Shown here one piece after another: positions 10,085 through 61,003 of a DNA stretch of 64,000 bases; positions within the stretch are counted from its first letter, which is position 1; every line of letters starts with the position of its first letter. The translations under genes and the position numbers were made by a program. Where the stretch lies: IMG/VR virus record IMGVR_UViG_3300031994_000004; one strand, given 5' to 3'. The notes under the pieces were generated by a model that saw nothing but the letters and a program-made list of their open reading frames with translations, was not told the origin of the DNA and did no database searches. The stretch is from a virus. Taxonomy: Duplodnaviria; Caudoviricetes.

Positions 10085-10552
10085 ATGAAAATGACTAAAC
10101 GATTTGAAAAGAAGCTCAAAGCTCTAGCGGACAAAATGGGTTTAGACACCAATTTTGACTGGGATTTGGGTTGGTTTGATTTCCTGACAAAGGATTTAAT
10201 CAAGCTCGGCTGTGTTCGTTTTTATGGATATGGAATGAACACCAAGCGGCAGTTACAGATTTATGTAGCAACTGCATACACGAAAATTTGTTATTATGAA
10301 AATGGCTTAAAATGGAATGGTTATGGATGGGGTATACAGAATCGGCTTTTGATTTGGGATCCGGCAATACCTGGATATATTAAAACTGCCGAAGATGGAA
10401 CAACTCACGAAACACTCATTTTCAATGAAGAAAACGAACCAACTGAAGAAATAATTTTAGGATTTCTTGAAGCTAGTTTTACTCATTGTATGCGAGCCAG
10501 GTTTTTGGAAAAAGAAAAAGAAAGACTTAAAGCTATGCGTGAGGATTTCTAA
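10085..10552 (+). CDS. DF-tail family protein
   Basis: Ends RLKAMREDF. Confidence 0.8.
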   Translation: MKMTKRFEKKLKALADKMGLDTNFDWDLGWFDFLTKDLIKLGCVRFYGYGMNTKRQLQIYVATAYTKICYYENGLKWNGYGWGIQNRLLIWDPAIPGYIKTAEDGTTHETLIFNEENEPTEEIILGFLEASFTHCMRARFLEKEKERLKAMREDF

Positions 10553-10905
10553 TGGCATTTATTGAAGTAAACATTTTGGATAAAGTAATTTCTGCTTTTG
10601 AAAAACGCGGTTGTGAACTTGATGGTTGTAAAATGACTGCCAATACTAACAGTGGCAGTTTTGATATGACCTTTCTTAAGTATCATTGTTTCAACATTAC
10701 TGTCTATTCTAACAGTGGAGAAGCTGACCAGTGGGTTTGTTATATTGGCATTGAAAATACTGTGTCTGGTGAAGGTAGTGGTATGGATTGGCGAAATGAA
10801 TATGATGATAAGTACGAAGAAATTGTGGATAAGTTAATGCTGGAAATGAAAAGAATGGAACAAGAAAACAAAATTAACGCAATTAAGAAGGATTTCAATG
10901 ACTAG
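10552..10905 (+). CDS. DF-tail family protein
   Basis: Ends KINAIKKDFND. Confidence 0.8.
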   Translation: MAFIEVNILDKVISAFEKRGCELDGCKMTANTNSGSFDMTFLKYHCFNITVYSNSGEADQWVCYIGIENTVSGEGSGMDWRNEYDDKYEEIVDKLMLEMKRMEQENKINAIKKDFND

Positions 10906-11155
10906 AGAAGAATTTTTTGATATACACGATAAGTACAATTTGCGTCTAACTGGACATCAGATATGGTTTGGCTATTTGTATCATATCGCAAATTTAGAAG
11001 CTATCACAAAGGAAGATTATAGAATTATTTACTTTAATCAGGGCAAAAGAGAACCTAGCAAAGAAGTATTTGAAAAATTTGTACAGAAATATGTACTGAT
11101 AGTTAAAGAGAACGAAGTTACTGAACGAATTAACAAAATGAAAGGAGACTTCTAA
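10898..11155 (+). CDS. DF-tail family protein
   Basis: Starts MTREEF, ends RINKMKGDF. Confidence 0.8.
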   Translation: MTREEFFDIHDKYNLRLTGHQIWFGYLYHIANLEAITKEDYRIIYFNQGKREPSKEVFEKFVQKYVLIVKENEVTERINKMKGDF

Positions 11156-11559
11156 TGACCTTTGAAGAATTTGAACTCAAATTTGCGGAACTTGTAGCCA
11201 AATATGGTTTCGTAAAGGATACTTGGCATTATGGCTGGAAACCAGATAAGGACTATTATGTGAACAGAACTGAATTGCCTGGTAAGCCAGACGCATTTGT
11301 CAGTTATTATTATAACCCAAAGAGCAAGAAGAAGTTGTATGTAGATTTCAATTCTGTGCTATACTATATCGCACCAACTGGTATGGATTCTTTCACTTCT
11401 AAGGACCATAGTTTGAATTATAAAGATTGCGACCAATTCAAGTGGGATAATTTTGAACGCTGGCTCAACTGTCAAAGTGAAACCATTTCAACTGCTCGCA
11501 GATTGAGTAAAGAAAAGAAAGAAAAGAAGAAGCTCAAAGAACTCAAAAAGGATTTCTAA
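11155..11559 (+). CDS. DF-tail family protein
   Basis: Starts MTFEEF, ends KLKELKKDF. Confidence 0.8.
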   Translation: MTFEEFELKFAELVAKYGFVKDTWHYGWKPDKDYYVNRTELPGKPDAFVSYYYNPKSKKKLYVDFNSVLYYIAPTGMDSFTSKDHSLNYKDCDQFKWDNFERWLNCQSETISTARRLSKEKKEKKKLKELKKDF

Positions 11560-11876
11560 TGAATTTTAATGAATTTGCAAGTTGGTTAAATTCGTATTTG
11601 ACTGAAAAAGGATATAAGCTTAATTCCGATAATGAAAATCGTCAATACTATTTAGATGCATTTTCATATTTTTGGATTTCTTATAAAGGCCGTATAATTT
11701 ATTTTCATAGAGAGTATTCGTCTTTTCATTGGTCTTATTTGGATTTTAATACTTGTCCACATCCTGATATAGAAGTTTATATGAATTTGTTTAAGAAACT
11801 TGCAAACGAATTTATGGTTAAAGAAAAACAAAGGATAATGCAAGTAAAACAGAGAAAACTAAACGAGGATTTCTAA
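11559..11876 (+). CDS. DF-tail family protein (paralog of 12253 and 12588)
   Basis: Ends KQRKLNEDF. Confidence 0.8.
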   Translation: MNFNEFASWLNSYLTEKGYKLNSDNENRQYYLDAFSYFWISYKGRIIYFHREYSSFHWSYLDFNTCPHPDIEVYMNLFKKLANEFMVKEKQRIMQVKQRKLNEDF

Positions 11877-12253
11877 TGAATTACCAGGAATTTTATGACA
11901 AAATGAACGAATTTGCTGACCTGATGGGTTTGGGCATTAGGCACACAAAAGAAAATGTGTTTGTCTATGTTAATTTGTTTCCATTGAACATTGAACTTGG
12001 TAAGTTTCCAGGTCGCCCTGAAGATGTTAAGCGTCTTTGGGAATTTGTTAGTGTTCGTTTCACTCAGCCGAATTTTCACGAAATCGGCTATGTGGATAGA
12101 AACCTGGAATGGCATTTTAAGGAATTTAATGACAATGTAATTCCTGAACGAATACTTAATGAGATTAAGAACAATTACGCTGATGCTCTTGTTGCTATTA
12201 AGTCAATTCCACTACAAAAGAAACTAGAAAGTATAAAGAAGGATTTTAAATAA
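11876..12253 (+). CDS. DF-tail family protein
   Basis: Ends KLESIKKDFK. Confidence 0.8.
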   Translation: MNYQEFYDKMNEFADLMGLGIRHTKENVFVYVNLFPLNIELGKFPGRPEDVKRLWEFVSVRFTQPNFHEIGYVDRNLEWHFKEFNDNVIPERILNEIKNNYADALVAIKSIPLQKKLESIKKDFK

Positions 12254-12588
12254 TGGCTGTGAATGATATAACTGATTTTAAAAAGTGTGCCAAAAAATTT
12301 GATACTCTGCTTAAAAATCTTGGTTACAAGACAGAATGTAGAGATGGTGAAGTTAATTACTATCTAGGGCACTATCCTGAGAAGTTCATCATCAGTTATC
12401 ATACAATGGTTATTCATTTTCACAGGTCCTTATTCTCTTGGTGGGAAATGATGGATTTCTATGCTGAACGCCCAGGTTCGTATAAACCTGATTATGAACT
12501 TTTAACTAAATGTGCTGAAAAAGTTTTACAAGATTATAAAAAAGAAATTTTAAAAAATAAAATGAAACAAATTAAAAAGGATTTCTAA
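12253..12588 (+). CDS. DF-tail family protein
   Basis: Ends KMKQIKKDF. Confidence 0.8.
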   Translation: MAVNDITDFKKCAKKFDTLLKNLGYKTECRDGEVNYYLGHYPEKFIISYHTMVIHFHRSLFSWWEMMDFYAERPGSYKPDYELLTKCAEKVLQDYKKEILKNKMKQIKKDF

Positions 12589-12920
12589 TGACAAATGAAG
12601 AACAGAACTGGTATACTTTTGCCAGTAAATTAAATTCATTTTTGATTGACAAAGGGTATAAAATGGAATACTCTAATAATTGTCGGCAGTATTGTTTGGA
12701 TAATGTGCCTCATTTTATAATAAACTATGATGATCAGTTCATCCATTTTACTCAAGATTTATATTCAATGTGGTATAGAATGCGATTTGATAATAATCTG
12801 AGTAATGGAGATTATGCTCCTGATTTTGAATTACTTACTCATTTTGCAGACGAAATGTTAATGCAGTATAAGCAACGAATATATGTAAACAAACTAATAA
12901 GGATTCAAAATGACTTTTGA
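12588..12920 (+). CDS. DF-tail family protein
   Basis: Ends KLIRIQNDF. Confidence 0.8.
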   Translation: MTNEEQNWYTFASKLNSFLIDKGYKMEYSNNCRQYCLDNVPHFIINYDDQFIHFTQDLYSMWYRMRFDNNLSNGDYAPDFELLTHFADEMLMQYKQRIYVNKLIRIQNDF

Positions 12921-13368
12921 AGGATTTATGTTAGAACTTGGTAAAGAATGGCCGACACCTTTGTTATTTTTGGTGTTGTTTTTTGGACTTTGTGTATTTC
13001 TGTTAAGAATGAAAACCAAAATGACAGAGTTTAAAGACGCTGACGGAAAGAAAATTCAGGAACAACTGCGAGAACTGTTAGAAAAATATGGTAACAATGA
13101 TTTTGTTTGTTTTGCTGGTTTAACTCCTTGGATAACGATTGGGCAACAGTTTCTTGTTAGAGTTGAGCCACAGGGGTATTCGTTTTTAACTGAGTATCTG
13201 TTTAGACCTAGGTTCAAATATGTTCTAGGGTATCTTTACAAAAACAGAGGTAAAGCACAGAAAATCGGTGTTTATACAGACCTGGAAAAATTGGTTCACG
13301 ATTATGTAAAAGTCAAGAAGGATTTTCAGGTAAAAGAAAAGTTACAGAAAATGGACGAAGATTTCTAG
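12910..13368 (+). CDS. DF-tail family protein with N-terminal TM helix
   Basis: LLFLVLFFGLCVFLL; ends KLQKMDEDF. Confidence 0.8.
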   Translation: MTFEGFMLELGKEWPTPLLFLVLFFGLCVFLLRMKTKMTEFKDADGKKIQEQLRELLEKYGNNDFVCFAGLTPWITIGQQFLVRVEPQGYSFLTEYLFRPRFKYVLGYLYKNRGKAQKIGVYTDLEKLVHDYVKVKKDFQVKEKLQKMDEDF

Positions 13369-13371
13369 TCT

Positions 13372-13437
13372 TGTAAACATTATTTTACATTATTATGCGG
13401 TTTGTCTATTGACAAACTGCATTTTTATTTCTATATT
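13372..13437 (+). promoter_or_regulatory. Early promoter cassette
   Basis: Box 13372-13389, TTGACA 13409, TATATT 13432, hairpin over the -35. Confidence 0.85.
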
Positions 13438-13801: not shown

Positions 13802-13806
13802 GATTT

Positions 13807-14187
13807 ATGACTAGAGAAGAATTTTTAGATACAGTCGCTAAATTTGGTTTGGGGCATAATGAATATGATGATTTCATTGAAGTCAAAATCAAAAGTCGCT
13901 ATGGTAAAGCTATTACACTAATGGAATACTGTAAGAAGTCTAAGTATTCTGCCCAGTATGCCTGGTTTTGCGAACAAGAAGGTGAAGTTACCATCTATTT
14001 TCCGCAAAGAGTTCTCAGCGTGGATGGTTACCTTGTGGAGATTGAACAGGGCGACCTTATGAAGAACGAACAACATAAACGATTTAGCAAACAAACTAAA
14101 TTGGAACGAACCCTAAAGGAAGTAATAGAACAACTCAAATCCTGGCGTCAGGAAATTAAACTAACAGAAGTGGAGTGGGATTTTTAA
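13807..14187 (+). CDS. DF-tail family protein
   Basis: Starts MTREEF, ends KLTEVEWDF. Confidence 0.8.
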   Translation: MTREEFLDTVAKFGLGHNEYDDFIEVKIKSRYGKAITLMEYCKKSKYSAQYAWFCEQEGEVTIYFPQRVLSVDGYLVEIEQGDLMKNEQHKRFSKQTKLERTLKEVIEQLKSWRQEIKLTEVEWDF

Positions 14188-14534
14188 TGTTTGAAAATTT
14201 TGAAAAATTTTTGCAAGACAAATTTAGAAATTCACCCAACAAGATGGATTTTGACGAAATGAATGCTGTCATCGCAAAATTTGGATTGACTGAGCAGAAG
14301 TTTCTGTCTGGTAAACTGTATTATCTGTATAATCGTGAAGTGGTTTATTGTCCTGAAGACCATAGAATCGGCAGAGCATACTCACTGTATCCTGATGGTG
14401 TAATTGACTTTGAAGACGAATACACCAGTATAGATAAGCTAGAAAAGTTCTTAATGAAGAAAACGAAAGAAATTAAGGACATTAAAGCAGATTTGCGAAT
14501 GATTAAGATGAAGGAAGATTTTGACGAATGTTGA
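14187..14534 (+). CDS. DF-tail family protein
   Basis: TAATG start at 14187; ends RMIKMKEDFDEC. Confidence 0.75.
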   Translation: MFENFEKFLQDKFRNSPNKMDFDEMNAVIAKFGLTEQKFLSGKLYYLYNREVVYCPEDHRIGRAYSLYPDGVIDFEDEYTSIDKLEKFLMKKTKEIKDIKADLRMIKMKEDFDEC

Positions 14535-14893
14535 GCCTTGACGAATTTGTTGCGTTGTGTAAGCAGTATTGTCCTGAGTGGGAACATTATGAAGATTGGG
14601 ATGATGGCGAATACTGGGTCAGTTTCACACATCTCAGTGATTATGCTATTTGTATGTACCAGTATACGGATAATAAAATCTTTATGCCACAAGCAATAAT
14701 TTATGAAAATGGCGAATGTGTTGCTGCCAATGATGATGGAATTCAACCAAAGACCTGGGATGAACATATTATAATAAATGTTGAAGACGCAGACGCAAAG
14801 GACAGATTTATTAAGTGTCTAATCAAATTACATCAGGACTACAAACAAATTCAACAGGACCTTAAACTAACGAAAATTAAAGAGGATTTCTAA
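14528..14893 (+). CDS. DF-tail family protein
   Basis: Ends KLTKIKEDF. Confidence 0.8.
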   Translation: MLSLDEFVALCKQYCPEWEHYEDWDDGEYWVSFTHLSDYAICMYQYTDNKIFMPQAIIYENGECVAANDDGIQPKTWDEHIIINVEDADAKDRFIKCLIKLHQDYKQIQQDLKLTKIKEDF

Positions 14894-15174
14894 TGGAAGA
14901 ACTGATGAAGTCATTTGGTTTATTTCATGACGAAGATTATTATTGGTTTGTTACAGAAGAAGATCATGTGAGAGGCAATTTTCTTGTGATTACTTATCCT
15001 GACCGAATTATTGTACACAAAACAATACAAGTAATTGAAAACAAAATCTATTATAGTAATTTGTTTGAAGTTTTTGGATATGAAAATGCAAAAGAAACTG
15101 TTGCTCGTTTATTGCGAGAAACAAAAGAAAAGTTAACTGAAATGCGTTTGGAAAAGATACAAAGGGATTTCTAA
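14893..15174 (+). CDS. DF-tail family protein
   Basis: Ends RLEKIQRDF. Confidence 0.8.
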   Translation: MEELMKSFGLFHDEDYYWFVTEEDHVRGNFLVITYPDRIIVHKTIQVIENKIYYSNLFEVFGYENAKETVARLLRETKEKLTEMRLEKIQRDF

Positions 15175-15494
15175 TGATTACTTGGGATGAATACAAAGAA
15201 TTGGTAACAAGATACAATTTGGAACCGAATTCTTTCAATACTGGATTTAGACCAAATGGAGAACCTGAACAACATTCACTTCCACATTTGCCAAAATATG
15301 GAAAGTACCAAGGAAAACGATGCGCAGTTTACCACGATAAATTTGGTGCCAGAGTTCGTAAAGATTTGGATTGTTGGTACACATGGTTACTAACAAAAGA
15401 AGAAATGGAAGAAGCACTAAATGAAATGTTTAAATTTTTGAAGGACGAACAAATTAAAGAAAAACTTAATGATGCAAGGAGTGATTTCGTATGA
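15174..15494 (+). CDS. DF-tail family protein
   Basis: Ends KLNDARSDFV. Confidence 0.8.
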   Translation: MITWDEYKELVTRYNLEPNSFNTGFRPNGEPEQHSLPHLPKYGKYQGKRCAVYHDKFGARVRKDLDCWYTWLLTKEEMEEALNEMFKFLKDEQIKEKLNDARSDFV

Positions 15495-15979
15495 GTACAG
15501 ACCTTATTAGATATATTGGGTTAGTTATTGGAGTTCTGACATTCTTTTCAATTTGCCGTAGATTTTATCTTGATTGGCGAACTGATAAGTGGCACGAACT
15601 AACAAGTATCAGTTGGGATGAAACTTATACTACGCTTGAAAATGTTTTGCTTGCTTGGACTGATACAGAAATTGCAAGTCACATTACTGATGGTGATGTT
15701 GAATGCGGACATTTCTTTATTGAAGTAGACAAAATTAAATTTAAGATTACTCTCGGCAAACATCCTATCAAAAGTTGGAAAGAATACAGAAAGTATAAGA
15801 AAGAAAATAATACATTCTACTATCTTAATACAGTTGGAACTTTAAACACTAAATCAAAAATTATTGCCCGTTATGAAACATTGGAAGATTTTATTTCGGA
15901 ATTTCCGAAAATATCTTCTCTCTATGTAAAGCAGGGTAAGACTGAAAAAAGAATAGACAAACTAATGGAGGACTTCTAA
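15491..15979 (+). CDS. DF-tail family protein with N-terminal TM helix
   Basis: YIGLVIGVLTFFSIC; ends RIDKLMEDF. Confidence 0.8.
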   Translation: MSTDLIRYIGLVIGVLTFFSICRRFYLDWRTDKWHELTSISWDETYTTLENVLLAWTDTEIASHITDGDVECGHFFIEVDKIKFKITLGKHPIKSWKEYRKYKKENNTFYYLNTVGTLNTKSKIIARYETLEDFISEFPKISSLYVKQGKTEKRIDKLMEDF

Positions 15980-16350
15980 TGACTAGAAATGAAATTCTAA
16001 CTCACATTCACAACCACCCGAAGATGCATCATTTGCTGGCCAGCATTTACCAGCACGAAGATTATACTTGGGCGAAAGAAAGTGGACTAAATGCATCTGC
16101 GTGTTTGTTTATTGACAATAACGAACACAACGGTGACTTGGTTGTAACAACTGGTGCTGGAGACAGAAGTCCAGACAGTGATTTCTTGAAAACACACAAT
16201 AAGTATTACCATCCTAACGAACTTACTCCTGAAAAGATAGACCAGATCATTGCAGAAGACATTCCTGAGTTGTACAAATTAACAATGAAGGATGTTACAG
16301 ATTATCTTGAAAGTAATAAAATAAAATCTTTGAATAAGGACTTTGAATAA
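15979..16350 (+). CDS. DF-tail family protein
   Basis: Ends KIKSLNKDFE. Confidence 0.8.
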   Translation: MTRNEILTHIHNHPKMHHLLASIYQHEDYTWAKESGLNASACLFIDNNEHNGDLVVTTGAGDRSPDSDFLKTHNKYYHPNELTPEKIDQIIAEDIPELYKLTMKDVTDYLESNKIKSLNKDFE

Positions 16351-16832
16351 TGGATGGGTTTTTCGTTGGAATGCTGTTTATGTTATTCGTGTTATTAGTG
16401 CTGGTAATTTTTGGTGTAATTTTTGCTGCCGCAGTCTATTTTTCAGACATTGGGACTAAGTCAAAACCACCATTTGAACCATACATAACTGAAGACGAAC
16501 AGAATGCATTTGTGGCCCGATTTAAGTCATTTGCTTTTGACGAAATGCCACAGTTTATGTATGGACTTAGAAACATACCGCCTAGAAGCATTCAAATGCA
16601 GTTTTCGCATCAGTCCAGGTGTTATATAAATGTAACGAAAGATATAAACAAAAAATGTTTTAAGTATGAAGTCAAATACAAGAAAACTGTGATAAAAACA
16701 TTTGACGATTGGGGAGAAGTCGGTGATTATTGTTGGAATTTAAATATAAGTTATAGAGATAACCCTGATTTGGTTTTAAAGACATTGGAAGTTGAAAAAC
16801 GAGAAGCTTTAGCAGCAGGAGATTTTGATTGA
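16350..16832 (+). CDS. DF-tail family protein with N-terminal TM helix
   Basis: Long hydrophobic N-terminus; ends REALAAGDFD. Confidence 0.8.
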   Translation: MDGFFVGMLFMLFVLLVLVIFGVIFAAAVYFSDIGTKSKPPFEPYITEDEQNAFVARFKSFAFDEMPQFMYGLRNIPPRSIQMQFSHQSRCYINVTKDINKKCFKYEVKYKKTVIKTFDDWGEVGDYCWNLNISYRDNPDLVLKTLEVEKREALAAGDFD

Positions 16833-17149
16833 GAAAATTTAAAAACTTAGATGGAACTGTATTCCAGAACGAATATGGTTTACTTACATCAAATGCTTTT
16901 GAAGTATTAAATAATACTCTCGGCAAAGAATATGGCAGACTCAAAATTTTCGGTACAGCCGTTGATTTGGTCAGTGAAAATTTTGAAATTATAGAAGATA
17001 ACAAAAGAAAAAGTCATTACAGTTATAATCGTGACTATGTTATTGAGCATTTTAATAAGATAACAAAAATGTATTATGACCTGTTGGAATTGAGAAAGAA
17101 AATAAATTACAAAAAGAAACTTAAAAATATAAAGAACGATTTTAAATAG
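16829..17149 (+). CDS. DF-tail family protein
   Basis: TTG start overlapping previous TGA; ends KLKNIKNDFK. Confidence 0.7.
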   Translation: MRKFKNLDGTVFQNEYGLLTSNAFEVLNNTLGKEYGRLKIFGTAVDLVSENFEIIEDNKRKSHYSYNRDYVIEHFNKITKMYYDLLELRKKINYKKKLKNIKNDFK

Positions 17150-18594: not shown

Positions 18595-18891
18595 ATGGGT
18601 ATTTTTAAACAACTATACAAAACATTTGTGTCTGACCCACAGAAAAAGCAGGAACTGTTAGATTGGTTAGTGGAACACGATACGCCTGAGTATCATAAGA
18701 ATCCGCTACCAGTTGGTTACGAAGCTAACAGATTGTTGTATGAAGAAATGGAATCTGTGGAAAGTTTGGAACAACAGAAGCAACAGATGCTGAATTATTA
18801 CACACGAAATAAACCTTTGGATTTGAACAAGAAGGAAGATAAGGACATTTATTTGCAAAGACGCTTGGAAAAAATCCAGGAGGATTTCTAA
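18595..18891 (+). CDS. DF-tail family protein
   Basis: Ends RLEKIQEDF. Confidence 0.8.
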   Translation: MGIFKQLYKTFVSDPQKKQELLDWLVEHDTPEYHKNPLPVGYEANRLLYEEMESVESLEQQKQQMLNYYTRNKPLDLNKKEDKDIYLQRRLEKIQEDF

Positions 18892-19094
18892 TGTTTGTTG
18901 TTACATTTGCTGCTAAACCTGCAAAAGATTTTCCAACATTAGATGCTGCTGCCCAATTTATGACTACAGTTAGTTATGGATTTATACGCTGCACAGATCC
19001 AAATGGAGATGACTGCTCTATTGCCTTGTGCCAACTTATTGTAAAGAAACTTAAAAATAATAACAGATTAAATGATTTAAAAGAGGACTTCTAA
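18891..19094 (+). CDS. DF-tail family protein
   Basis: Ends RLNDLKEDF. Confidence 0.75.
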   Translation: MFVVTFAAKPAKDFPTLDAAAQFMTTVSYGFIRCTDPNGDDCSIALCQLIVKKLKNNNRLNDLKEDF

Positions 19095-19615
19095 TGAAAG
19101 CAATTTACGCCGGTTCATTTAACCCACTTCACGCTGGACACATTGACATTCTTAAAAGGGCAATCAAGCTCTTTGGTGATGTTACTTTGGTATTAGCAGT
19201 TAACCCAGGAAAGACTTATATTTCGGCAGAAAGGCGTAAAGAAACTTACGAATGGCTTTTCAAAGAAATCGGACTGAATGTAAAGATTGAAATTCTCTCG
19301 GCATATAAGTTGCTCGCAGATTACTGCGATGAAAATGGTGTAACTCACATTGTTAAAGGTCTAAGGAACGGAACTGACCTTGATAGTGAAATGGCACAGG
19401 AATGGTACACGAAGGGACTTAACCCAAATGTAGAAACTGTGTATTTCACCACAAATAACACACATCGTTTTCTGTCTTCGTCCAGCATCAAGGCCTTTGC
19501 CAAAATGGATAAAGAAGGTTTCATTAACTATATGAAGAAAGTAAACAGTATTGAAGGAGCAAAAGCCACAGTTGTTGAAACATATCTTGACTGGGTGTGG
19601 AGGAATGTGCAGTGA
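19094..19615 (+). CDS. coaD: Phosphopantetheine adenylyltransferase
   Basis: AIYAGSFNPLHAGHIDI, AVNPGK, IVKGLRNGTDLDSE, ETVYF, LSSSSIK. Confidence 0.85.
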   Translation: MKAIYAGSFNPLHAGHIDILKRAIKLFGDVTLVLAVNPGKTYISAERRKETYEWLFKEIGLNVKIEILSAYKLLADYCDENGVTHIVKGLRNGTDLDSEMAQEWYTKGLNPNVETVYFTTNNTHRFLSSSSIKAFAKMDKEGFINYMKKVNSIEGAKATVVETYLDWVWRNVQ

Positions 19616-20133
19616 ATTTAACTGATAATGTAAAAAACATAAGAGCTGATTTTGACAAAGCTCGTAAGAATATGGACTATATGGAAAAAGGACTTCAGTT
19701 CGTGGAATCATATTTTACGGACAAGAATTTTCCTGGATGGTGTTGGAGAATTTACACCCGTGGAACATTCCAAAATAGACCTTATTTTGAAATTCAAGGA
19801 AATTCTCACATTCCAAGTATGAACTGTTCACAGTACGCAACTATTTGTTTGAAATATAACTGTTGTAATAAAACTGGTGCAGTTCTAGTCATTCAAGACC
19901 TTGCTCCTGAAATGAATGCTTGGAGTTTGGACTGGGCAGATAAACAAGCATACTGTAATGAAATGGATCCGATTTTTAAATCATTTGAAGGAATGAAGTT
20001 CAAAAATCCTGATCCGTTCATTCCGCAAATTGCGAAAATTCTTACTGACATTAAGAAAAAAGAAGATGTCAATAATGGAGCACTTCAACTTAAATCACTA
20101 ATCAAACAAATTCAACTTAAAAAGGACTTCTAA
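19612..20133 (+). CDS. DF-tail family protein
   Basis: Probable GTG start overlapping the coaD stop; ends QIQLKKDF. Confidence 0.75.
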   Translation: MNLTDNVKNIRADFDKARKNMDYMEKGLQFVESYFTDKNFPGWCWRIYTRGTFQNRPYFEIQGNSHIPSMNCSQYATICLKYNCCNKTGAVLVIQDLAPEMNAWSLDWADKQAYCNEMDPIFKSFEGMKFKNPDPFIPQIAKILTDIKKKEDVNNGALQLKSLIKQIQLKKDF

Positions 20134-20625
20134 ATGGCACACGAAAAAATTTTTAAAACTGTGGAAGAAGCCCAGGCGTTTATTCAACCCTGGATTGACA
20201 AGGTTTCAGCTGATTTGGGCTGTGGTGTAGAACCATACAGTTACAATGATGGCTATTATATGTCTGGTGGGCAAAATGTTGGTGACTGGTTTTATGGTGC
20301 GAATTTAAAGTATCTCGGATATAATTTGGGGACTATAATGATGCAGTACCAGTATGGTTATGATAGGGACACTAAAGAATCGTGGAAATATGACCCGTAT
20401 GTTCAGTTATCATTACAAACAAAAGTAACATTTACAATGAAATCTACATTTACTAAGTCAAATATGCGACACGATATAAACATTAAACTGAATGTTAGCC
20501 GACAGATGTCTACATCAGATAAAGATTACAAGAAGTTCATTGACTGGGCAAAGCTCATTATGAAACAACTAAAGACTGCGGAAGCTAAAAAGCGAAAGTT
20601 CCAGGCCGATGTTGACTTTGAATAA
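20134..20625 (+). CDS. DF-tail family protein
   Basis: Ends RKFQADVDFE. Confidence 0.75.
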   Translation: MAHEKIFKTVEEAQAFIQPWIDKVSADLGCGVEPYSYNDGYYMSGGQNVGDWFYGANLKYLGYNLGTIMMQYQYGYDRDTKESWKYDPYVQLSLQTKVTFTMKSTFTKSNMRHDINIKLNVSRQMSTSDKDYKKFIDWAKLIMKQLKTAEAKKRKFQADVDFE

Positions 20626-20634
20626 GGAGCAACT

Positions 20635-21120
20635 ATGACAAATAAAGAGAAAAAAGAAAAGGTAGAACAAATTAACGAAAAGTTCCGTTCTCTTTTGGAA
20701 CAGTATGCGGATCAACTTAGGAATACTGGACTTATTGTAGATTGGTTCCCTGATGAAGATTACCCAGATTGTTCTTCATTTTCTTGCTGTCTATCTAAAA
20801 ACGATTTGGACGAAGGCGATGAGTTTATCAGTGTTTGTTTAACTGCTCCTGAAATGGATTGGGAACATCCTGAACTATACGATCTGGATAAATACACACC
20901 AATAATTTATTTCAATCTTGAAAGTAAAATTAGTGAAATCAAAGATACTTCAATTACCAAAACTGGTATTAAAATCAAAACAAAGTATAAATTTAGCAAC
21001 AGTAAAGAATACAAAGAAAAGGATTTTAAAACTGTACTTGAATGGGCGAAATATATTGTACAGAAAGTAAAGGACCTTAAGCAACAAGAAAAGATTAACA
21101 AAATGCAGGCGGATTTCTAA
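20635..21120 (+). CDS. DF-tail family protein
   Basis: Ends KINKMQADF. Confidence 0.8.
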   Translation: MTNKEKKEKVEQINEKFRSLLEQYADQLRNTGLIVDWFPDEDYPDCSSFSCCLSKNDLDEGDEFISVCLTAPEMDWEHPELYDLDKYTPIIYFNLESKISEIKDTSITKTGIKIKTKYKFSNSKEYKEKDFKTVLEWAKYIVQKVKDLKQQEKINKMQADF

Positions 21121-21551
21121 TGGCATCTGTTTTCAAAACAAAAGTAGCAATGCTTGACATTATCAAAAAGTTTGCCGAAGAACTTAGTCAAATTGGCTTT
21201 GTTGATGTGCATCGTTTAAATAACGATGAAGGTCGGCATACTTTCTACATTGATAATGAATTTGTTGGTGACATCTACTTTCATTATCAGAAAGAAAACA
21301 GAAGTATGCGTCGCATTGTTACAAGGTTTAATTACGAAGTTAAAATCTATCATAACATCACTTACAACGCAGATAAGGTTGAAGAAGAATATGACATTAA
21401 ACTGCGTGATATTGTATCACGATATGTAACTGAAGATACCATTGACATTTTGTATGACATTAAAAATATGCTAAAAGATGTTTACAGGAACTATAAGAAA
21501 GCTCAAAATAAAATAAAAGAATTGAAAATGAGCGGTGATTTTTCCGAATAG
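21120..21551 (+). CDS. DF-tail family protein
   Basis: Ends ELKMSGDFSE. Confidence 0.75.
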   Translation: MASVFKTKVAMLDIIKKFAEELSQIGFVDVHRLNNDEGRHTFYIDNEFVGDIYFHYQKENRSMRRIVTRFNYEVKIYHNITYNADKVEEEYDIKLRDIVSRYVTEDTIDILYDIKNMLKDVYRNYKKAQNKIKELKMSGDFSE

Positions 21552-21593: not shown

Positions 21594-22175
21594 ATGAAAA
21601 AGATAATTCTATTAACAATTCTATTATTCTCGCTCGGGTTTTCTAGTAGAACTGAGAGCAATTTCGCCGACCTTTATTACATTTCTAAGGGTTCGGAAAT
21701 CATCAAATCTGTAAACAAGAACATTACAGAAAAAGAAGCATTTCAGATTAGTACTGTTGCGTATGAAGAATCTGAAAAATACGATATAGATTTTCATTTT
21801 ACATTGGGGATAATGACAACTGAAAGTCGCTTCAATGTAAATGCGAAATCTTATTGTGGTGCAGTCGGTCTGATGCAACTAATGCCGAAAACTGCCAAAT
21901 ATATCGCAGAGAAATACGATATAGATTATAAGAACTTGTATGATATAGAATCAAACATTCAGATTGGTGTTGCGTATCTGTATCATTTGAAAAACAAGTT
22001 TGGCAGTTACGAATTAACAGCAGCTGGTTACAATGGTGGAAGTGGCGGTGCTAAAAAGTATCACGAATATATGATTGGAAAACGCAAAGCAGACGAAATC
22101 CATAATCAAACTTTAAATTACGTTCCGAAAGTAATGGGATATGTTTATGACTACCGAAAACTCACAAAAATCTAA
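21594..22175 (+). CDS. Lytic transglycosylase (SLT domain) with signal peptide
   Basis: MKKIILLTILLFSLGFS; ESRFN, GAVGLMQLMP, NIQIG, AGYNGG, TLNYVPKV. Confidence 0.9.
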   Translation: MKKIILLTILLFSLGFSSRTESNFADLYYISKGSEIIKSVNKNITEKEAFQISTVAYEESEKYDIDFHFTLGIMTTESRFNVNAKSYCGAVGLMQLMPKTAKYIAEKYDIDYKNLYDIESNIQIGVAYLYHLKNKFGSYELTAAGYNGGSGGAKKYHEYMIGKRKADEIHNQTLNYVPKVMGYVYDYRKLTKI

Positions 22176-22419
22176 AAAATATGTTGTTACAAAACTTTTT
22201 CCACCGGATTTTAATGCGGATCCATATTCTAAATGGAAAGAAAAACAACTGTGCCGGTGCGATACATTAAAAGAATGTGCTGAGTTTATCGTGAACAATG
22301 ATGAATACTGGTATAATTGCCGATATGGTAAACAGGACCTGAAACAAGAACTTTGTGATTTGATTATAAAGCTTAAAAATCTACGAAAACGCAGTAATTC
22401 ATTGGAATCCGATTTTTAG
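22141..22419 (+). CDS. DF-tail family protein
   Basis: Ends RSNSLESDF; start uncertain. Confidence 0.7.
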   Translation: MFMTTENSQKSKKYVVTKLFPPDFNADPYSKWKEKQLCRCDTLKECAEFIVNNDEYWYNCRYGKQDLKQELCDLIIKLKNLRKRSNSLESDF

Positions 22420-25809: not shown

Positions 25810-25810
25810 T

Positions 25811-33182: not shown

Positions 33183-33220
33183 AAAAATCTATTGACAAGC
33201 TCAATAGATTTTTGTATTTT
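33183..33220 (+). promoter_or_regulatory. Promoter with a perfect 13-bp inverted repeat over the -35
   Basis: AAAAATCTATTGA-caagc-TCAATAGATTTTT; TTGACA 33192, TATTTT 33215. Confidence 0.7.
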
Positions 33221-33227
33221 AATGACT

Positions 33228-48312: not shown

Positions 48313-48740
48313 TTACAGTTGATGAATTTAAACAATTAGCGACTGAAACAGGTTTAATGTTTTGGGAAAATGAAGCATTATTTTATAAGAGAGAAACAAC
48401 TTATTATCTAAGTTATCCAATGCCGATGTTTAGAGAGAACTGCGAAGATGATGAAGATTATAAAATGAAAAGCGCTGTAATCAGTTTAGCCCCATACAAA
48501 GACCCACCTGAAATTTACATTTATGGTAATATACTTTATGATTTTGACCATCTTGATAAACTGGTTGAAGGTAAAGAAATTTATTGTTACAATATGATTT
48601 CTGCTTTGGAATACGATGACGGACTACAATGGAACGATAAAACTTATGAAGAAATTAGGGACGAAGTTCTAAAAGTAAAGAAAATGATTTTTGATAAACA
48701 ACAGGAGATAAATCTTGAAAAAATAAAAGGAGATTTCTAA
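48309..48740 (+). CDS. DF-tail family protein
   Basis: Ends NLEKIKGDF. Confidence 0.8.
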   Translation: MITVDEFKQLATETGLMFWENEALFYKRETTYYLSYPMPMFRENCEDDEDYKMKSAVISLAPYKDPPEIYIYGNILYDFDHLDKLVEGKEIYCYNMISALEYDDGLQWNDKTYEEIRDEVLKVKKMIFDKQQEINLEKIKGDF

Positions 48741-49975: not shown

Positions 49976-50806
49976 ATGGTTGATAATTTTGCTCTCATTG
50001 AAGAATATATGGCAAAGCAGGCTATTACTTGGAAAGAAGGCGATTGCTACTATGTGCAGTTGCTCCGTCGCCAGGCGGATGACCCGATGATTGGTGGTGT
50101 GAAGGACAAGAAGTATCACGGCAATATGCACAGCCGCTCTATCAAGGACTATCTCATCAAGTCAGTTGACCATCTTGAAGATGTCAAGCAGCAGATTATT
50201 GAATTTTGTAAGCTTGAAAATGTGAGAGCATACATTCGTCTGAACAAGCGCAACTATAAGAACATTGCACTTCAAATGATGAAACACATCGCTGAACAAG
50301 CTGCTAGTGGTGAAACTTACTCTAGTCCGTTCCATCTCGTTTCATCTGCTTGTGGTGAATGTTGCCAGGCTGGTGACGATAAGACTTGGATTGTGGACCT
50401 GGATAAGGAATACCTTCCGTATGAAAATGAAATCATTGACATGATTTGTCAGTGTATGCCAATTTCCGCAAAACTCCAGGAAATCTATGACTCCACCAAT
50501 GCTGAAATTCATAGCACTGGAAACCCGTGTGGTGTGTCAATGGAAGAAATCAAGCAGAAGTATGTGGCTGAAAATTTCTTCATTGTGCCGACTAAGAGCG
50601 GAAAGCACATCGTGTGTAAACCGTTCAACAGGGATACATTTAGCCATGTGCCTAATGCTGATGCTATCGCAAAGGCAAAGAAAGAAGGCAAAGAACCGAA
50701 AATGGGTCTCTGGGAACAGTTCTGTAAGTCTCGCGGCATTGAACTGAAGTGTATGGACATCCATAAGGACAACCCGACAATCCTGTATGTGCCTGACATG
50801 CAGTAG
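49976..50806 (+). CDS. Hypothetical protein with AEP/PrimPol-like motifs
   Basis: WIVDLD (DxD) and PTKSGKHIV (SxxGxH-like). Confidence 0.5.
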   Translation: MVDNFALIEEYMAKQAITWKEGDCYYVQLLRRQADDPMIGGVKDKKYHGNMHSRSIKDYLIKSVDHLEDVKQQIIEFCKLENVRAYIRLNKRNYKNIALQMMKHIAEQAASGETYSSPFHLVSSACGECCQAGDDKTWIVDLDKEYLPYENEIIDMICQCMPISAKLQEIYDSTNAEIHSTGNPCGVSMEEIKQKYVAENFFIVPTKSGKHIVCKPFNRDTFSHVPNADAIAKAKKEGKEPKMGLWEQFCKSRGIELKCMDIHKDNPTILYVPDMQ

Positions 50807-50822
50807 GGAGGACCTGGTTCTA

Positions 50823-51176
50823 ATGACTGAAGAAGAATTAAAAACATTTTTGCTTGCCGAACTAAAACCATTTGTTAATAAAGTATTCTGGGACTCAGAT
50901 GGTATGTGGGCATCTGGAAAAAACAGTACATATATCGCATATTACAAGCGTGATGTTTCTACTGCTAAACCAGGTCTGTATATCACAAAATTTATAAGTG
51001 ACGATGGAGCAGTTGTTAATGAGAAAGGAGTATTGTATTGGGGTTCCTGGCCTGAAGAATTGAAAGTCAGTCTAAATGATGATGACGAAATTCGCAGGAG
51101 AGTTTACAACATTATCAAACGGATGAAAGAAATTGAGAACAACAAAAGAATGAAGAATATACAGAAGGATTTTTAA
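50823..51176 (+). CDS. DF-tail family protein
   Basis: GGAGG SD, starts MTEEEL; ends RMKNIQKDF. Confidence 0.8.
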   Translation: MTEEELKTFLLAELKPFVNKVFWDSDGMWASGKNSTYIAYYKRDVSTAKPGLYITKFISDDGAVVNEKGVLYWGSWPEELKVSLNDDDEIRRRVYNIIKRMKEIENNKRMKNIQKDF

Positions 51177-51559
51177 TGGGTAAGAAAACCAGTAATGTTT
51201 CGGATAAAGTAATTAGTTTGGGGAAAACTCTAATTGAGTTTGCTAAACAGTGCGATTATGTATATTCCGAAACTAACAACATTTATACTTATGGCCTGGA
51301 CATTGTTGCTAGACAGTTTAATCTTGGGGATAAATATGCTTCAATTTTCAGTTTAGGACAAGTAGGAAAACATAAGTGGGAAATTGGTTACTGGAAATCT
51401 TATAAAGACGAAGATCTATCTTATCATTACTTCAAAGATAACGAAATGGACTACAATAAAGAAGTTTCTATCTGGACAAAATATATTCAAAATTTTAGCA
51501 AAAAGATAAAGAAAAAATCTATATTTGAGCGAGAACAGAAAATTAAGGAGGACTTTTAA
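51176..51559 (+). CDS. DF-tail family protein
   Basis: Ends REQKIKEDF. Confidence 0.8.
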   Translation: MGKKTSNVSDKVISLGKTLIEFAKQCDYVYSETNNIYTYGLDIVARQFNLGDKYASIFSLGQVGKHKWEIGYWKSYKDEDLSYHYFKDNEMDYNKEVSIWTKYIQNFSKKIKKKSIFEREQKIKEDF

Positions 51560-52362: not shown

Positions 52363-52731
52363 ATGACAAAAGATGAACTGAAAGATTATTGTTATTCTGT
52401 TGGTTTGATTGACACCAAAAATCCTGCGTGGGCTGAATCTAAATACACTAAGGGATATAGATACGGTGATAAATTTGTAAACTCTATGGATTTTATTGCT
52501 GGATGGGATGAAGATAAACAGTGTGTTGTTGTAGCCAAAAGTTGTGTAATTAACGAAGCATTCGTATATGAAGGACCGATCCGTATGGATGGTGCTGAAG
52601 CTGTTTATAATGATGAAGAAATTAAAGCTCGCATTAGTGAGTTAATCACATCGGTTCAAGAAAACATTAAGTTCCTTAAATGGAAACAAATGAAAAAGAA
52701 AATTAAGAAAATGGAAGGAGATTTTGAATGA
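52363..52731 (+). CDS. DF-tail family protein
   Basis: Ends KIKKMEGDFE. Confidence 0.8.
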   Translation: MTKDELKDYCYSVGLIDTKNPAWAESKYTKGYRYGDKFVNSMDFIAGWDEDKQCVVVAKSCVINEAFVYEGPIRMDGAEAVYNDEEIKARISELITSVQENIKFLKWKQMKKKIKKMEGDFE

Positions 52732-57526: not shown

Positions 57527-57732
57527 TTTGTATGGAAGAACTAACTGCGACAATTAAAAGACTTCAACTGTTGAAAGATAATACAGATAGTCCTGAAGAA
57601 ATTGTGGCAACCGATTTAATGATTACTAACCTTACCAATTTGGCTAGACAGTTCGGTATGTTGCTAGATTCTCCTGAATTTAAACAAATGGTAGAAGAAT
57701 ACAAAATAAATTCAAAAATAAAGGATGATTAA
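57523..57732 (+). CDS. Hypothetical protein
   Basis: ATGA overlap. Confidence 0.65.
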   Translation: MICMEELTATIKRLQLLKDNTDSPEEIVATDLMITNLTNLARQFGMLLDSPEFKQMVEEYKINSKIKDD

Positions 57733-58036
57733 GATTATAGACAACATAACAGTTATTCTTTGGCGATGGACTCACAGAATTAAAAAGACTAATTGGATTC
57801 ACGGTCATCAGTTGACAACTAAAATTTACGCACCTCAATGGTGGTTTATTTGGTGGCATTATTACTGGTATGACATTGGTTATCAGGCAGTTGCTCCTGA
57901 AACATTTGACACAATGGCAGCCGCTTATGATTTCGTAACTCCATATTGGATGCCGGAAAAAGAATGTAAACTAGAATTTTACAAAAAGCAGGACGAAATT
58001 GACAAAAAGTTAGACGAAGCTAATAAAGATTTCTAA
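57725..58036 (+). CDS. DF-tail family protein (Trp-rich)
   Basis: Ends KLDEANKDF. Confidence 0.75.
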   Translation: MIKIIDNITVILWRWTHRIKKTNWIHGHQLTTKIYAPQWWFIWWHYYWYDIGYQAVAPETFDTMAAAYDFVTPYWMPEKECKLEFYKKQDEIDKKLDEANKDF

Positions 58037-58038
58037 TT

Positions 58039-58104: not shown

Positions 58105-58129
58105 ATAATCATACAAAAGAGGTAACATT

Positions 58130-58456
58130 ATGGATTTAAATACATTTCTTCCAATCGCAAAGAAGTTTGGCTTGCTTATAAACAAATGCCATAACGGAAA
58201 TGTGGAGTTTTATATTGACAAAAACAAATTTAATACTCCATATAACGGTTGGGTTTGTACTTATTACAAGCAGACAAATAAAATGGGAAATCCCAGAATG
58301 AAAGTTTGGAAATTGGGAAATGATGTAGATGGTTTTGATTTATGCTGGGGTTCAAATATAAATCTGAGAGATGATTTGATTTTTGAAAAGCCCAAATTTG
58401 TAGAACGGGCCCTGACAGAAATGTTTAAGAGATTGGAAAAATTCAAAAGGAGATAA
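58130..58456 (+). CDS. Hypothetical early protein (family-like body, no DF tail)
   Basis: FLPIAKKFGL N-terminus; GAGGT SD. Confidence 0.7.
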   Translation: MDLNTFLPIAKKFGLLINKCHNGNVEFYIDKNKFNTPYNGWVCTYYKQTNKMGNPRMKVWKLGNDVDGFDLCWGSNINLRDDLIFEKPKFVERALTEMFKRLEKFKRR

Positions 58457-59295: not shown

Positions 59296-59487
59296 ATGCA
59301 AAATGCTATTAAGAAGTATTTCTTTTTGACCCTCCCCATTTGCCTTATTGGGTGTTTCTTAATGATTTTACTTGAGAAGATGTGGGAAACTAACTTCGGC
59401 CTTATCCCATTCTTCATTTGGGGTTTTCTCAGTGCTTACATTTCCGAAGGTGTAAACAACAAGCTTAATTTGTTCCCAAATGAATAA
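59296..59487 (+). CDS. Small membrane protein
   Basis: GAGGA SD; two TM segments. Confidence 0.65.
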   Translation: MQNAIKKYFFLTLPICLIGCFLMILLEKMWETNFGLIPFFIWGFLSAYISEGVNNKLNLFPNE

Positions 59488-59815
59488 AACGATTTTTACA
59501 GAAATTTGCACTAAATACGGGTTTCGTGTTGAAAAAGAAATTGCCCCGTGGAATGATGGCGGTGATTGGTATGTTGCTTATATGCCAAGCGACAAATTCA
59601 ATGTAGCAGTTGCGGCTTATGACCCTGAAGATGAAGATGTTGCCACAATTTGTATTTCATTGAAAAAGAAAAATCTTCCAGTCAAAATTAAAGTTGCTAA
59701 CACAAAAGATGTAAGAACTGTGGAAGATTTGGAACGAGCTTGTATGGAATTAAATGTAAAATTCAAAGAAATGTTAGAACAAATTAAACTAGAACAAATT
59801 AACTCAGATTTCTAA
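59480..59815 (+). CDS. DF-tail family protein (paralog of 60653)
   Basis: Ends KLEQINSDF. Confidence 0.8.
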   Translation: MNKTIFTEICTKYGFRVEKEIAPWNDGGDWYVAYMPSDKFNVAVAAYDPEDEDVATICISLKKKNLPVKIKVANTKDVRTVEDLERACMELNVKFKEMLEQIKLEQINSDF

Positions 59816-59827
59816 AGGAGAATAAAA

Positions 59828-60166
59828 ATGCTTACAACATCTACTATTGACTATATGCCAAAAATCCTGAAGTCATTTAGAAAGTACATTGAGAAATACG
59901 ATTGTACTTATACGATTTCAAAGAGTGAGTCATTTCCTGGCGAAATATGTTATACTCTAATTTTCTATCACGCAGGTAGTAATATGCCATATCTGTTGGT
60001 AACTCAACACGATTCTAGCAAGCACGCAACTATCTATGTGAACAAGTACGCAGATAACTGGTCTAAGAGCGATTGTAAGCTTCGTGAAGAATGTGTCATT
60101 TCAAATAACATAACAGAATTTATTAAGGCCATTCGTGAATGTTCCATTTCAGGAGAACAAAAATGA
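59828..60166 (+). CDS. Hypothetical protein
   Basis: AAGGAG SD. Confidence 0.7.
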   Translation: MLTTSTIDYMPKILKSFRKYIEKYDCTYTISKSESFPGEICYTLIFYHAGSNMPYLLVTQHDSSKHATIYVNKYADNWSKSDCKLREECVISNNITEFIKAIRECSISGEQK

Positions 60167-60390
60167 TTGACAATTACGATTACCCACTTCACGATGAAGA
60201 ACACGAAATCTTACCGAGTGGAATAAAACTTAAGAAGTCATGTCCTGTATGTGAAAAAGGAGCTTCACTGATAAGTCAGTTCGGTTATCGTGTTTATATC
60301 TTAAATAATAAGCTCTGTTTGGAAGGACCAGATGGAATTTGTTGTTCTGATACATTAACAACTTGTCCAAAATGCGGGAGAAGTCTATGA
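60163..60390 (+). CDS. Small zinc-ribbon protein
   Basis: CPVC ... CPKCGRSL. Confidence 0.7.
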   Translation: MIDNYDYPLHDEEHEILPSGIKLKKSCPVCEKGASLISQFGYRVYILNNKLCLEGPDGICCSDTLTTCPKCGRSL

Positions 60391-60653
60391 AAGAATACTT
60401 ATGGGAAGTAGTAAAGAATACGGGAATGATTGTTGTCGGCGTTTCTGTTTTAGCACTGTATTTTATAGGATTGATTTTCTCAGTTTGTATTGCGTTACTA
60501 CCAATGTTCGTAGGAATTTATCTGAACGATTGTTTAGGATTTGATAAGTTGACTGTTGGAATTCCTTCGTTTATTATTACTATCCCGTGGGCCGTTGCGT
60601 GGTTTACGCTTCTCTCAAAAATTGACGATAAATTTAAACTGGGAATTTTCTAA
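60387..60653 (+). CDS. Membrane protein
   Basis: 2-3 TM segments. Confidence 0.7.
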   Translation: MKEYLWEVVKNTGMIVVGVSVLALYFIGLIFSVCIALLPMFVGIYLNDCLGFDKLTVGIPSFIITIPWAVAWFTLLSKIDDKFKLGIF

Positions 60654-61003
60654 TGGCAAAACAGGACATTTCAAAAGAACAATTTATTCAAATCTGTACT
60701 GAGTATGGATTTGAAATAAGAGAACTTTCCGAACCTTGGAGAACTAATGGTGTTTGGTATGTTGCTTTCATTCCTCATTATGACGCAGCTATTGCCGGTC
60801 ATGTACCTGAAGACCACGAAACAAATGTTTGTGTTAAATTAGATTGTTTGTATGATGGTCCTGTACATTTTCAAACTAGAACAACTTGCCAACCTAGAAC
60901 TGTAGAAAAATTTAAATTCTTTTTGGGAGAAGTAAATAAGACAGTTAAAAATCATATTGTAAATATGAAACTCAGCAAAATGCAAGAGGAGGACTTTCAA
61001 TGA
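60653..61003 (+). CDS. DF-tail family protein
   Basis: Ends KLSKMQEEDFQ. Confidence 0.8.
   Translation: MAKQDISKEQFIQICTEYGFEIRELSEPWRTNGVWYVAFIPHYDAAIAGHVPEDHETNVCVKLDCLYDGPVHFQTRTTCQPRTVEKFKFFLGEVNKTVKNHIVNMKLSKMQEEDFQ

Follow-up and report, generated by a model that had tools for sequence, protein, structure and literature searches.

The C-terminal helix ending in Asp-Phe that is considered here, hereafter the DF tail, is carried by at least ~125 small early proteins encoded in a 210,185-bp virus record of IMG/VR (IMGVR_UViG_3300031994_000004; G+C content, 34%), and it was analysed around a window, i.e., a whole stretch of 64,000 nt that corresponds to the reverse strand of positions 81654-145653 of that record. 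Specific to the lineage and massively expanded, the DF genes make up about 30%, or roughly one third, of the genes of the phage, and codon comparisons indicate that it is as a peptide that their tail is kept, in paralogs as well as in orthologs. The reading that we prefer, and offer tentatively, is that the DF helix docks all the bodies that carry it onto one common partner, either of the phage or of its host; this and every other functional step proposed below we infer from sequences and predicted models. Present knowledge of phages offers no explanation for so large an investment as the spending of ~30% of the genes on a single tagged early set.

Judged by its markers (a DNA polymerase, a UvsX-like recombinase, a DnaB-like helicase and a gp32-like SSB), the phage, uncultured and of jumbo size, is T4-like, with a polymerase only 27-31% identical to that of any cultured phage. 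The record is ~56% complete according to the CheckV estimate, and the metagenome contigs that carry relatives reach 375 kb. Metatranscriptome runs contain up to 23% of the sampled words from positions 10000-19100 of the window.

The tail and its conservation as a peptide

A greedy set of 127 plus-strand open reading frames (ORFs) covers 95% of the window. D-F-stop ends 34 of them and D-F followed by one to three residues ends another 18, exactly the numbers counted by hand in an earlier, model-made inspection of the same letters (the sequence-only reading). Residue frequencies predict 1.9 such ends against the 52 seen (binomial P = 1.7e-59), in 2000 within-protein shuffles such ends numbered 2.0 on average and never more than 9, and no other C-terminal dipeptide comes near the frequency of DF in the window ORFs. 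Over the ~425 ORFs of the whole record, DF-type ends amount to 131, including one array on the opposite strand; six of these 131 belong to a second tail class (L-x-[DE]-F-[FL]-x). A hidden Markov model (HMM) of the tail built from 77 members outside the window scores 38 DF-ending window ORFs at 6 bits or more, against three non-DF ORFs, and a profile of the last 40 residues matches 84 places in the record, while two relatives of 61 and 72 kb contain 14 and 8 matches, respectively. Arrays of the same kind are present on contigs of related uncultured phages.

When the 131 members are aligned on the Phe (position 0, with the Asp at -1 and upstream residues counted negatively), the consensus unit is K(-15)-x6-[KR](-8)-L(-7)-x2-[ILM](-4)-x2-D-F, where K(-15) is present in 113 members, [KR](-8) in 118 and [ILM](-4) in 107, position -7 is occupied by Leu, Ile or Met, and hydrophobic positions recur further upstream at -16, -20 and -23/-24. 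The helix [KR]-[LIM]-x-x-[ILM]-x-x-D-F described earlier is present, but its nine residues are only part of what stays constant, namely a helix of 16 to ~35 residues in which the Lys at -15 hardly ever varies. L(-7), [ILM](-4) and F(0) stand at i, i+3 and i+7, on the same face of the helix, and K(-15), K/R(-8) and D(-1) are exactly seven residues apart on one side of that hydrophobic face. The three hydrophobic residues would form a single stripe edged by charges in the same heptad position, and stripe and charges together would make a short, amphipathic helix for docking, suited to a binding surface whose geometry is fixed. One to three residues follow the Phe in 59 of the 131 members, and the same occurs in 12 of the 13 members of the relative L002; since such extra residues are common, the free C-terminal carboxylate is not what is read. 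The residue after the Phe (E, K, V, Q or T) comes from the NNA codon created where start and stop overlap in ATGA, and the offsets found between Phe and stop are 0, 1, 2, 3, 7 and 9 residues, plus one internal copy. The last 16 residues have a net charge of +1.15, and with a charge of only about +1 and three hydrophobic positions, membrane or DNA binding by a basic helix is not favoured.

Could such an end be a by-product of the way in which these genes are translated? In coupled genes, the junction (A/G)AGGAT-TTY-TAATG provides a Shine-Dalgarno (SD) sequence, a spacer and the next start codon, and it might be argued either that GAGGAT-TTC-TAATG is selected as nucleotides for this purpose or that the nascent tail modulates termination and reinitiation. 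This would fit the codon before the Asp, which is AAG or GAG in 85% of the translationally coupled genes (genome-wide, AAG makes up 39% of the Lys codons and GAG 10% of the Glu codons), the presence of the tail in 46% of coupled against 20% of uncoupled genes, and the TAATG that comes after DF in 21 of the window's 34 D-F-stop genes. However, the bias vanishes in operon-final genes, i.e., those with no gene within 30 nt, where the third base of the codon before the Asp is G in 25% of cases against 85% in coupled genes, while Asp-Phe and the helix are kept in ~25 genes without a downstream gene within that distance. Nor is GATTTY enriched 5' of genes with an intergenic leader (9/124), and over the 45 nt back to K(-15) that are conserved synonymous codons interchange freely: Asp and Phe are each encoded by both of their codons, codon choice at K(-15), D and F is that of the genome, and among 30 homolog pairs from related contigs K(-15) has undergone 10 synonymous against 2 amino-acid changes, D 7 synonymous changes and F 8, and at position -9 only 2 changes are synonymous and 20 replace the amino acid.

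The explanation at the nucleotide or translational level is thereby largely refuted, and we consider it highly improbable. Coupling through SD and TAATG was rejected as a full explanation because it covers only the AAG/GAG bias of the codon before the Asp in coupled genes. A DNA-level repeat or recombination handle was discarded on account of the free synonymous variation at the conserved codons, and a nascent peptide that arrests the ribosome or modulates termination would require a fixed register to the stop, whereas tails shifted by one to three residues, or internal, are common and a register-dependent arrest peptide would not tolerate them. SD and peptide are two separable layers, the former overlaid only on the codon before the Asp and only in coupled genes. 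The proposal that selection acts on the peptide is thus upheld by the synonymous Lys, Asp and Phe codons and by the persistence of the tail in operon-final genes that precede a terminator and a promoter. This clean separation of peptide coding from an overlaid SD signal is also a caution for the reading of conserved gene ends in coupled arrays.

Bodies, relatives and predicted structures

The part of the protein upstream of the tail, here called the body, is far more variable. BLAST leaves 92 of the 131 members as singletons, and tandem near-duplicates exist among the DF genes. HMM iteration from one subfamily recruits 94 members with their tails and none once the last 14 residues are removed, and orthologs keep DF as their bodies drift, so that the modularity proposed in the sequence-only reading holds: the tail behaves, at the level of sequence profiles, as a module separable from the body. 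An iteration with tail-stripped sequences, started from the members opening with MTxEEF..K[YF]G[FL], links 38 of the 131, plus a few tail-less relatives (e.g., 58130-58456). That opening, also pointed out before, is real, but it is found in only 30-36% of the members, compared with 12-18% of other small ORFs. Body-only comparison of the resulting core profile with hhalign adds two or three of the 91 other members (two at a probability of at least 50%) and none of 131 controls, and when the group of gene 52363 is compared with that of gene 25099 the alignment covers the tail only. At least one third of the bodies, as far as profiles can tell, are one family, and the remainder is undetectable by profile.

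AlphaFold2 models were obtained for two members only, one canonical (52363-52728) and one non-canonical (25099-25806). The former, of 122 residues, is predicted with a predicted local distance difference test (pLDDT) score of 91, from an alignment of 21 ortholog clusters, to comprise a helix at 3-12, five strands and a single helix at 84-121 that ends at DF. Its structural neighbours are weak by VIA Z score: Med17C (4h62_Q; Z 5.4, root-mean-square deviation (rmsd) 3.8, 85 aligned), YjbR (2fki; Z 5.1, rmsd 3.8, 86 aligned), the immunity protein TriTu (7zhm_D; Z 5.0) and frataxin (4hs5_A; Z 4.5); the order of secondary-structure elements of the YjbR/frataxin (CyaY)/Med17C-like sandwich matches the model, with weak Z. 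These domain-level matches stop at about residues 100-110, which places K(-15), residue 106, at the exit of the helix from the body. The second model, of 236 residues and without any sequence link to the core, has a pLDDT of 73, the same order of elements and a terminal helix of 73 residues; its best neighbour is Med17 (7emf_Q; Z 6.3, rmsd 3.1, 96 aligned, residues 32-176), and its residues 194-236 match only isolated coiled-coil helices. The Z scores of YjbR and the immunity protein lie in the range of chance arrangements, and Foldseek gave no named relative for either model (E ≥ 1 against PDB, E ≥ 0.36 against BFVD). An earlier candidate, a HicA/dsRBD-like fold suggested by the 'helix-G-aromatic-strand' start, was dropped, as it is absent among the structural neighbours. 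A 'helix-G-aromatic' opening is also shared by a four-member paralog family without DF tail, located outside the window at 29432-41394 of the reverse-complemented genome, whose proteins start with M-x-LDEAKEILKNNGY-I/L-VE.

The models thus suggest an alpha/beta body from which the last helix would protrude as a stalk, the body being common to one third of the members and possibly to more. Regarding the 'dozens of different recognition domains' of the sequence-only reading, the bodies are indeed mostly unalignable, but at least one third are one family and both modelled members have the same build; a single hyper-diverged scaffold is equally possible.

The relatives tell a similar story of a constant end on changing bodies. 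Eight related loci, consisting of IMG/VR contigs (G+C 32-35% where computed) and one Logan rumen-type assembly, add 96 ORFs that end in DF, and K(-15) is present in 88 of these. DF is kept in 28 of the 32 best homologs of window members; in 3 of the 32 the tail is lost or altered and the body retained. For the canonical gene at 52363..52731, Asp and Phe are invariant across the 21 ortholog clusters from metagenomes. DF homologs in the relatives L001 and L002 are mostly 23-44% identical, compared with 75-82% for the ligase, and the overall median identities are 0.58 for DF and 0.74 for non-DF proteins; a subset of longer DF members is well conserved (63-98%). On these identities, DF proteins evolve faster than the products of the surrounding housekeeping genes. 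A degenerate DNA pattern scanned over IMG/VR gave 89 loci, of which only 5 are true arrays, the others being chance matches. The yak omasum metagenome-assembled genome (MAG) 'Clostridia bacterium RGIG9710' (JAGCEE010000157.1, L096/G003), a GTDB species representative of 1.7 Mb, contains 37 DF-tail matches on many small contigs together with an M18 peptidase gene of 86% identity. Pieces of a phage from the DF lineage seem to make up most of this bin, or else to contaminate it.

Named families were not reached from any direction. Pfam gave no family at or above cut-off for any of the 52 window members (and no SUKH or Imm at E ≤ 0.01), PHROGs gave no match for the 10 members searched, PDB sequence profiles gave E ≥ 0.035, and neither tblastn against 50,697 phage records nor an ESM Atlas feature search with the 236-residue member returned a named relative. 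A profile of the 52-member alignment found seven matches among 1.84 billion representatives, all of them unnamed members of the DF family, a low number that reflects the ~40 bits carried by that profile. Among the long proteins of a 5.8-billion-protein set the tail profile found small unnamed proteins only, with no tagged enzyme or host protein, and three Clostridia genomes chosen through the M18 peptidase contained no host-encoded tail, which is a weak negative since the host is not identified. Full-text literature searches found no description of a DF-tail family.

Gene arrays, early operons and neighbouring genes

The DF genes of the window, all on the plus strand, are mostly arranged in runs. 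Nine consecutive ones occupy 10085..13368 (starts 10085, 10552, 10898, 11155, 11559, 11876, 12253, 12588 and 12910) and another nine 13807..17149 (starts 13807, 14175, 14528, 14893, 15174, 15491, 15979, 16350 and 16829), the last gene being operon-final in both; genes 15491 and 16350 each encode an N-terminal transmembrane segment, a trait of six members overall. Two genes follow at 18595..19094 (18595-18891 and 18891-19094), four at 19597..21551 (starts 19597, 20134, 20635 and 21120), two of which are longer and have atypical, low-scoring helices with DF conserved, and a lone operon-final gene at 22141..22419. Seven more fill 24788..28082 (starts 24788, 25099, 25811, 26341, 26639, 27175 and 27495). 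Single genes of 216 and 222 codons lie at 31630..32280, where the next gene has its own SD, and at 33192..33860, which is operon-final. The runs of nine, nine, seven and four genes (the last at 47286..48740, directly 3' of the phage GroEL gene) stand as the sequence-only reading had them. The run given as 35287-36977 is real as well, with four DF genes at 35287..36648 (starts 35287, 35592, 35996 and 36376) followed by a family member at 36648..36977 with nine residues after its ..NLETDF, whose tail-HMM score of 16.3 bits is the highest of any ORF without a terminal DF; that given as 40416-43124 is broken by a non-DF gene into a gene of 162 codons (40416..40904) and three genes at 41751..43124 (starts 41751, 42325 and 42762; the last operon-final). 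The remaining members are two genes at 50787..51559, the canonical gene of 122 codons at 52363..52731, which ends in DFE and is the one modelled, an operon-final gene at 57725..58036, and two further canonical genes, 59480..59815, where the next gene has its own SD, and 60653..61003, ending in EEDFQ. The tail-less relative at 58130..58456 has a canonical N-terminal body, recruited by the body-only HMM, and ends in ..RLEKFKRR without DF.

Some members depart from one tail per end. The motif is doubled in tandem in the products of 25099-25809 (236 residues; ..LNKMRNDF-TDKTVDSILKQINLQGDF at residues 203-236, the second, internal copy lying at 211-218) and 12910-13368 (..KKDFQVKEKLQKMDEDF), and the metagenomic member P0003 (186 residues) has an internal tail followed by an extra domain of ~70 residues.

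The intergenic gaps repeat a unit made of GTAAACATTATTTTACA, a hairpin with TTGACA in its 3' arm, a T-run and, at a spacing of 17 nt, TATATT; AAGAGGTAACA then precedes the ATG. The boundary at 13395..13437 (plus strand) exemplifies it, with a terminator-like hairpin whose 3' arm contains the TTGACA -35 box, followed by the T-run and TATATT, and equivalent sites lie at 9486-9524, 17183-17218, 22447-22483, 23880-23917, 28105-28133 and 29180-29208, and also at 58037-58129. Eight perfect TTGACA-17-TATATT sites are found between 9.3 and 29.2 kb, five of which overlap a terminator-like hairpin. Terminator and early promoter overlap at the operon boundaries as a fixed composite, and the DF arrays fill what these motifs mark as predicted sigma70-type early operons, usually up to the terminator.

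Among the neighbours, the NAD-dependent DNA ligase is split, with the adenylation and OB domains encoded at 17246-18364 and the HhH and BRCT domains at 23948-24787, 5.5 kb downstream; DF genes lie between the two halves, and the ligase is likewise split in the relatives L001, L002 and L004. A proteostasis cluster at 43203-47197 encodes an M18 aspartyl aminopeptidase, an Hsp20 in the usual groES position, and GroEL. Among cellular sequences, the M18 gene is closest to homologs from Clostridia (49% in Lachnospiraceae and 43-44% in Oscillospiraceae), a hint that the host belongs to that class. A GIY-YIG homing-endonuclease-like gene (30761-31585) is located between the NAPRTase gene and a DF gene, and its flanking intergenic structure lacks the usual promoter box.

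A proposed docking helix, its rivals and its known counterparts

According to the docking reading, an exposed stalk of ~16 residues, K-x6-[KR]-L-x2-[ILM]-x2-D-F, would plug fast-evolving bodies into a common partner, and the whole set might be an arsenal for host takeover or counter-defence working through a shared hub. Several observations weigh against it. K(-15), at the exit of the helix from the body, may be structural. AlphaFold monomer models often present true coiled coils as free stalks, and self- or cross-association could give the same conservation. The same architecture in both models, along with the body family that covers one third of the members, raises the possibility that the tail is just the best-conserved element of a single fold. 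Finally, the tail-less orthologs with a retained body imply either that the tail is sometimes dispensable or that those genes are decaying.

The closest competitor, which we regard as possible though doubtful, is that the DF proteins are one hyper-diverged paralog family whose C-terminal helix is a short coiled coil for homo- or mixed oligomers, with no outside partner and with conservation arising from mutual compatibility. The alpha/beta bodies with a long helix in both models (with Med17C as best neighbour), the 38 members linked by the body HMM, the tandem near-duplicates and the coiled-coil fragments matched by residues 194-236 of the longer model are all consistent with it, as are the hydrophobic residues at -11 (in about half of the members), -7, -4 and 0, which follow an a/d spacing. 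Such a coiled coil would nonetheless have just three well-conserved core layers, position -14 being polar and -11 hydrophobic in only half of the members, and the e/g partners (-10, -3) of the conserved charges are not themselves conserved. Coiled coils tolerate wide variation, so that a near-invariant K(-15), K/R(-8), D(-1) and Phe over more than 200 proteins would be unexpected, and two thirds of the bodies lack profile similarity to the core. We therefore prefer docking to self- or cross-assembly, as a working choice rather than a settled one. Both a degron or adaptor role and clamp binding can be considered special cases of docking. That the tail is a degron or timer, read by a protease or unfoldase of the host or the phage that clears early proteins, or else that the members are SspB-like adaptors delivering host proteins, would suit the predicted exposed C-terminal helix with its hydrophobic end, the exclusively early DF genes, and the M18, Hsp20 and GroEL cluster embedded among the arrays. 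This proximity is, however, not significant, because 41% of the window genes are DF genes, and no Clp protease was found by a ClpP search in the record, which is only ~56% complete. To our knowledge, the DF motif is also unlike the ssrA, MuA and SspB tails, and the proposal appears quite improbable.

Even less credit is given to the third possibility, that the tail binds the phage sliding clamp and tethers ~130 early proteins to DNA. In T4, the C-terminal tails of gp43, gp33 and gp55 dock on gp45, with a terminal aromatic residue after an acidic one as anchor, and such tails are hydrophobic and acidic, and interchangeable (PMC2988020). The T4-like character of the phage agrees with this, and so does the D-F dipeptide that the DF tail shares with the [DE]-F-[FL] ends of the phage's own polymerase and DNA enzymes. 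These enzymes, however, make up the second tail class: the polymerase (..GLDDFFV), two DNA methyltransferases (..GLNDFFE and ..PLTEFFE) and a phosphoesterase (..NEFFI) end in L-x-[DE]-F-F-x, with two aromatic residues, no basic helix and neither K(-15) nor K/R(-8), and a 130-residue protein ends in ..ILDFLN. Their genes lie outside the window in the same genome, on the minus strand (L003:13734-16490, 13052-13747, 10937-11671, 355-951 and 7347-7736), and the gp32-like SSB and a DHH protein end in [DE]-F-[FM]-x-K-L-x-x-M. The tails of this second class look, by analogy, like T4-type clamp-binding tails, and DNA methyltransferases tethered to the clamp would be notable, if true. The DF motif, with its single aromatic residue and its basic heptad positions, differs from the polymerase end ..SSGLDDFFV, and no gp45 C-domain match was found in the record, again with its ~56% completeness. 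In gp55 the clamp epitope, hydrophobic and acidic, is joined by a variable flexible linker (PMC2988020), whereas the DF tail, at +1.15, is predicted to continue rigidly, without a break, a helix whose length is 38 or 73 residues; on both counts it departs from a T4-type epitope.

If the tail does dock, a peptide of 16-25 residues could serve as bait for the hub, and more than 100 ORFans would gain a common mechanistic frame in which each binds a different target. This would supply, all at once, a large number of candidate specificities for anti-defence or host takeover, as well as a modular scaffold of natural origin. If the tail instead drives assembly among the members, these would form a combinatorial oligomer family, of which no phage example has been described before.

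Known systems share some of these properties without combining them. The T4 gp45-binding tails, to which the RB69 polymerase peptide reportedly seen on gp45 can be added, resemble the DF tail in being short, portable C-terminal motifs with an acidic and an aromatic residue on otherwise unrelated proteins of T4-like phages, and in T4 a single hub reads them; unlike it, they are confined to three or four replication and transcription proteins, as opposed to ~130 small early ones, and their epitope is acidic with two or three hydrophobic residues, instead of a rigid 16-residue amphipathic helix with conserved Lys/Arg. The acidic, Phe-ended tails of T7 gp2.5 and gp4 dock on the T7 DNA polymerase, and the E. 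coli SSB tip ends in ..DDDIPF. There, too, an Asp precedes a terminal Phe anchor and one type of tail serves several proteins or many partners, but those tails are disordered, strongly acidic and in need of a free C-terminus, whereas the DF tail is helical, has a net charge of ~+1 and tolerates residues after the Phe (the 59 of 131 members mentioned above); an SSB-Ct/T7 gp2.5-type tail was discarded for these reasons.

At the level of gene families, the tandem multigene families MGF 110/360/505 of African swine fever virus (ASFV), the poxvirus Bcl-2-like proteins and the bacterial SUKH/Imm poly-immunity arrays are likewise formed by small, fast-diverging tandem paralogs at a presumed host interface, although they have no common terminal tag. 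In the adaptor families, SspB engages ClpX through its XB tail, and the poxvirus ANK/PRANC proteins have an F-box-like module. As in the DF set, many binding bodies are connected there through one C-terminal module to a cellular machine, and PRANC is a viral multigene family as well; neither ANK/PRANC nor SspB is related to the DF proteins in sequence or fold, and the PRANC module is a folded domain, in contrast to the single DF helix. The boldest form of the docking reading, which we hold to be unlikely, would make the tail a universal handle by which more than 130 diversifying binder domains (probably more than 200 in the full genome) are plugged into one hub machine, be it a chaperonin, an unfoldase/protease, the RNA polymerase or the clamp, in order to relocalise, neutralise or destroy host defence and housekeeping proteins. 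For a virus of prokaryotes, the DF set would then correspond to what the ANK/PRANC or BTB-Kelch adaptor families are in poxviruses. With respect to all of these systems, what is new here is the scale, ~30% of the genes of a phage, as well as a tag that is helical and mildly basic, accepts residues after the Phe, and is restricted to fast-evolving early ORFans.

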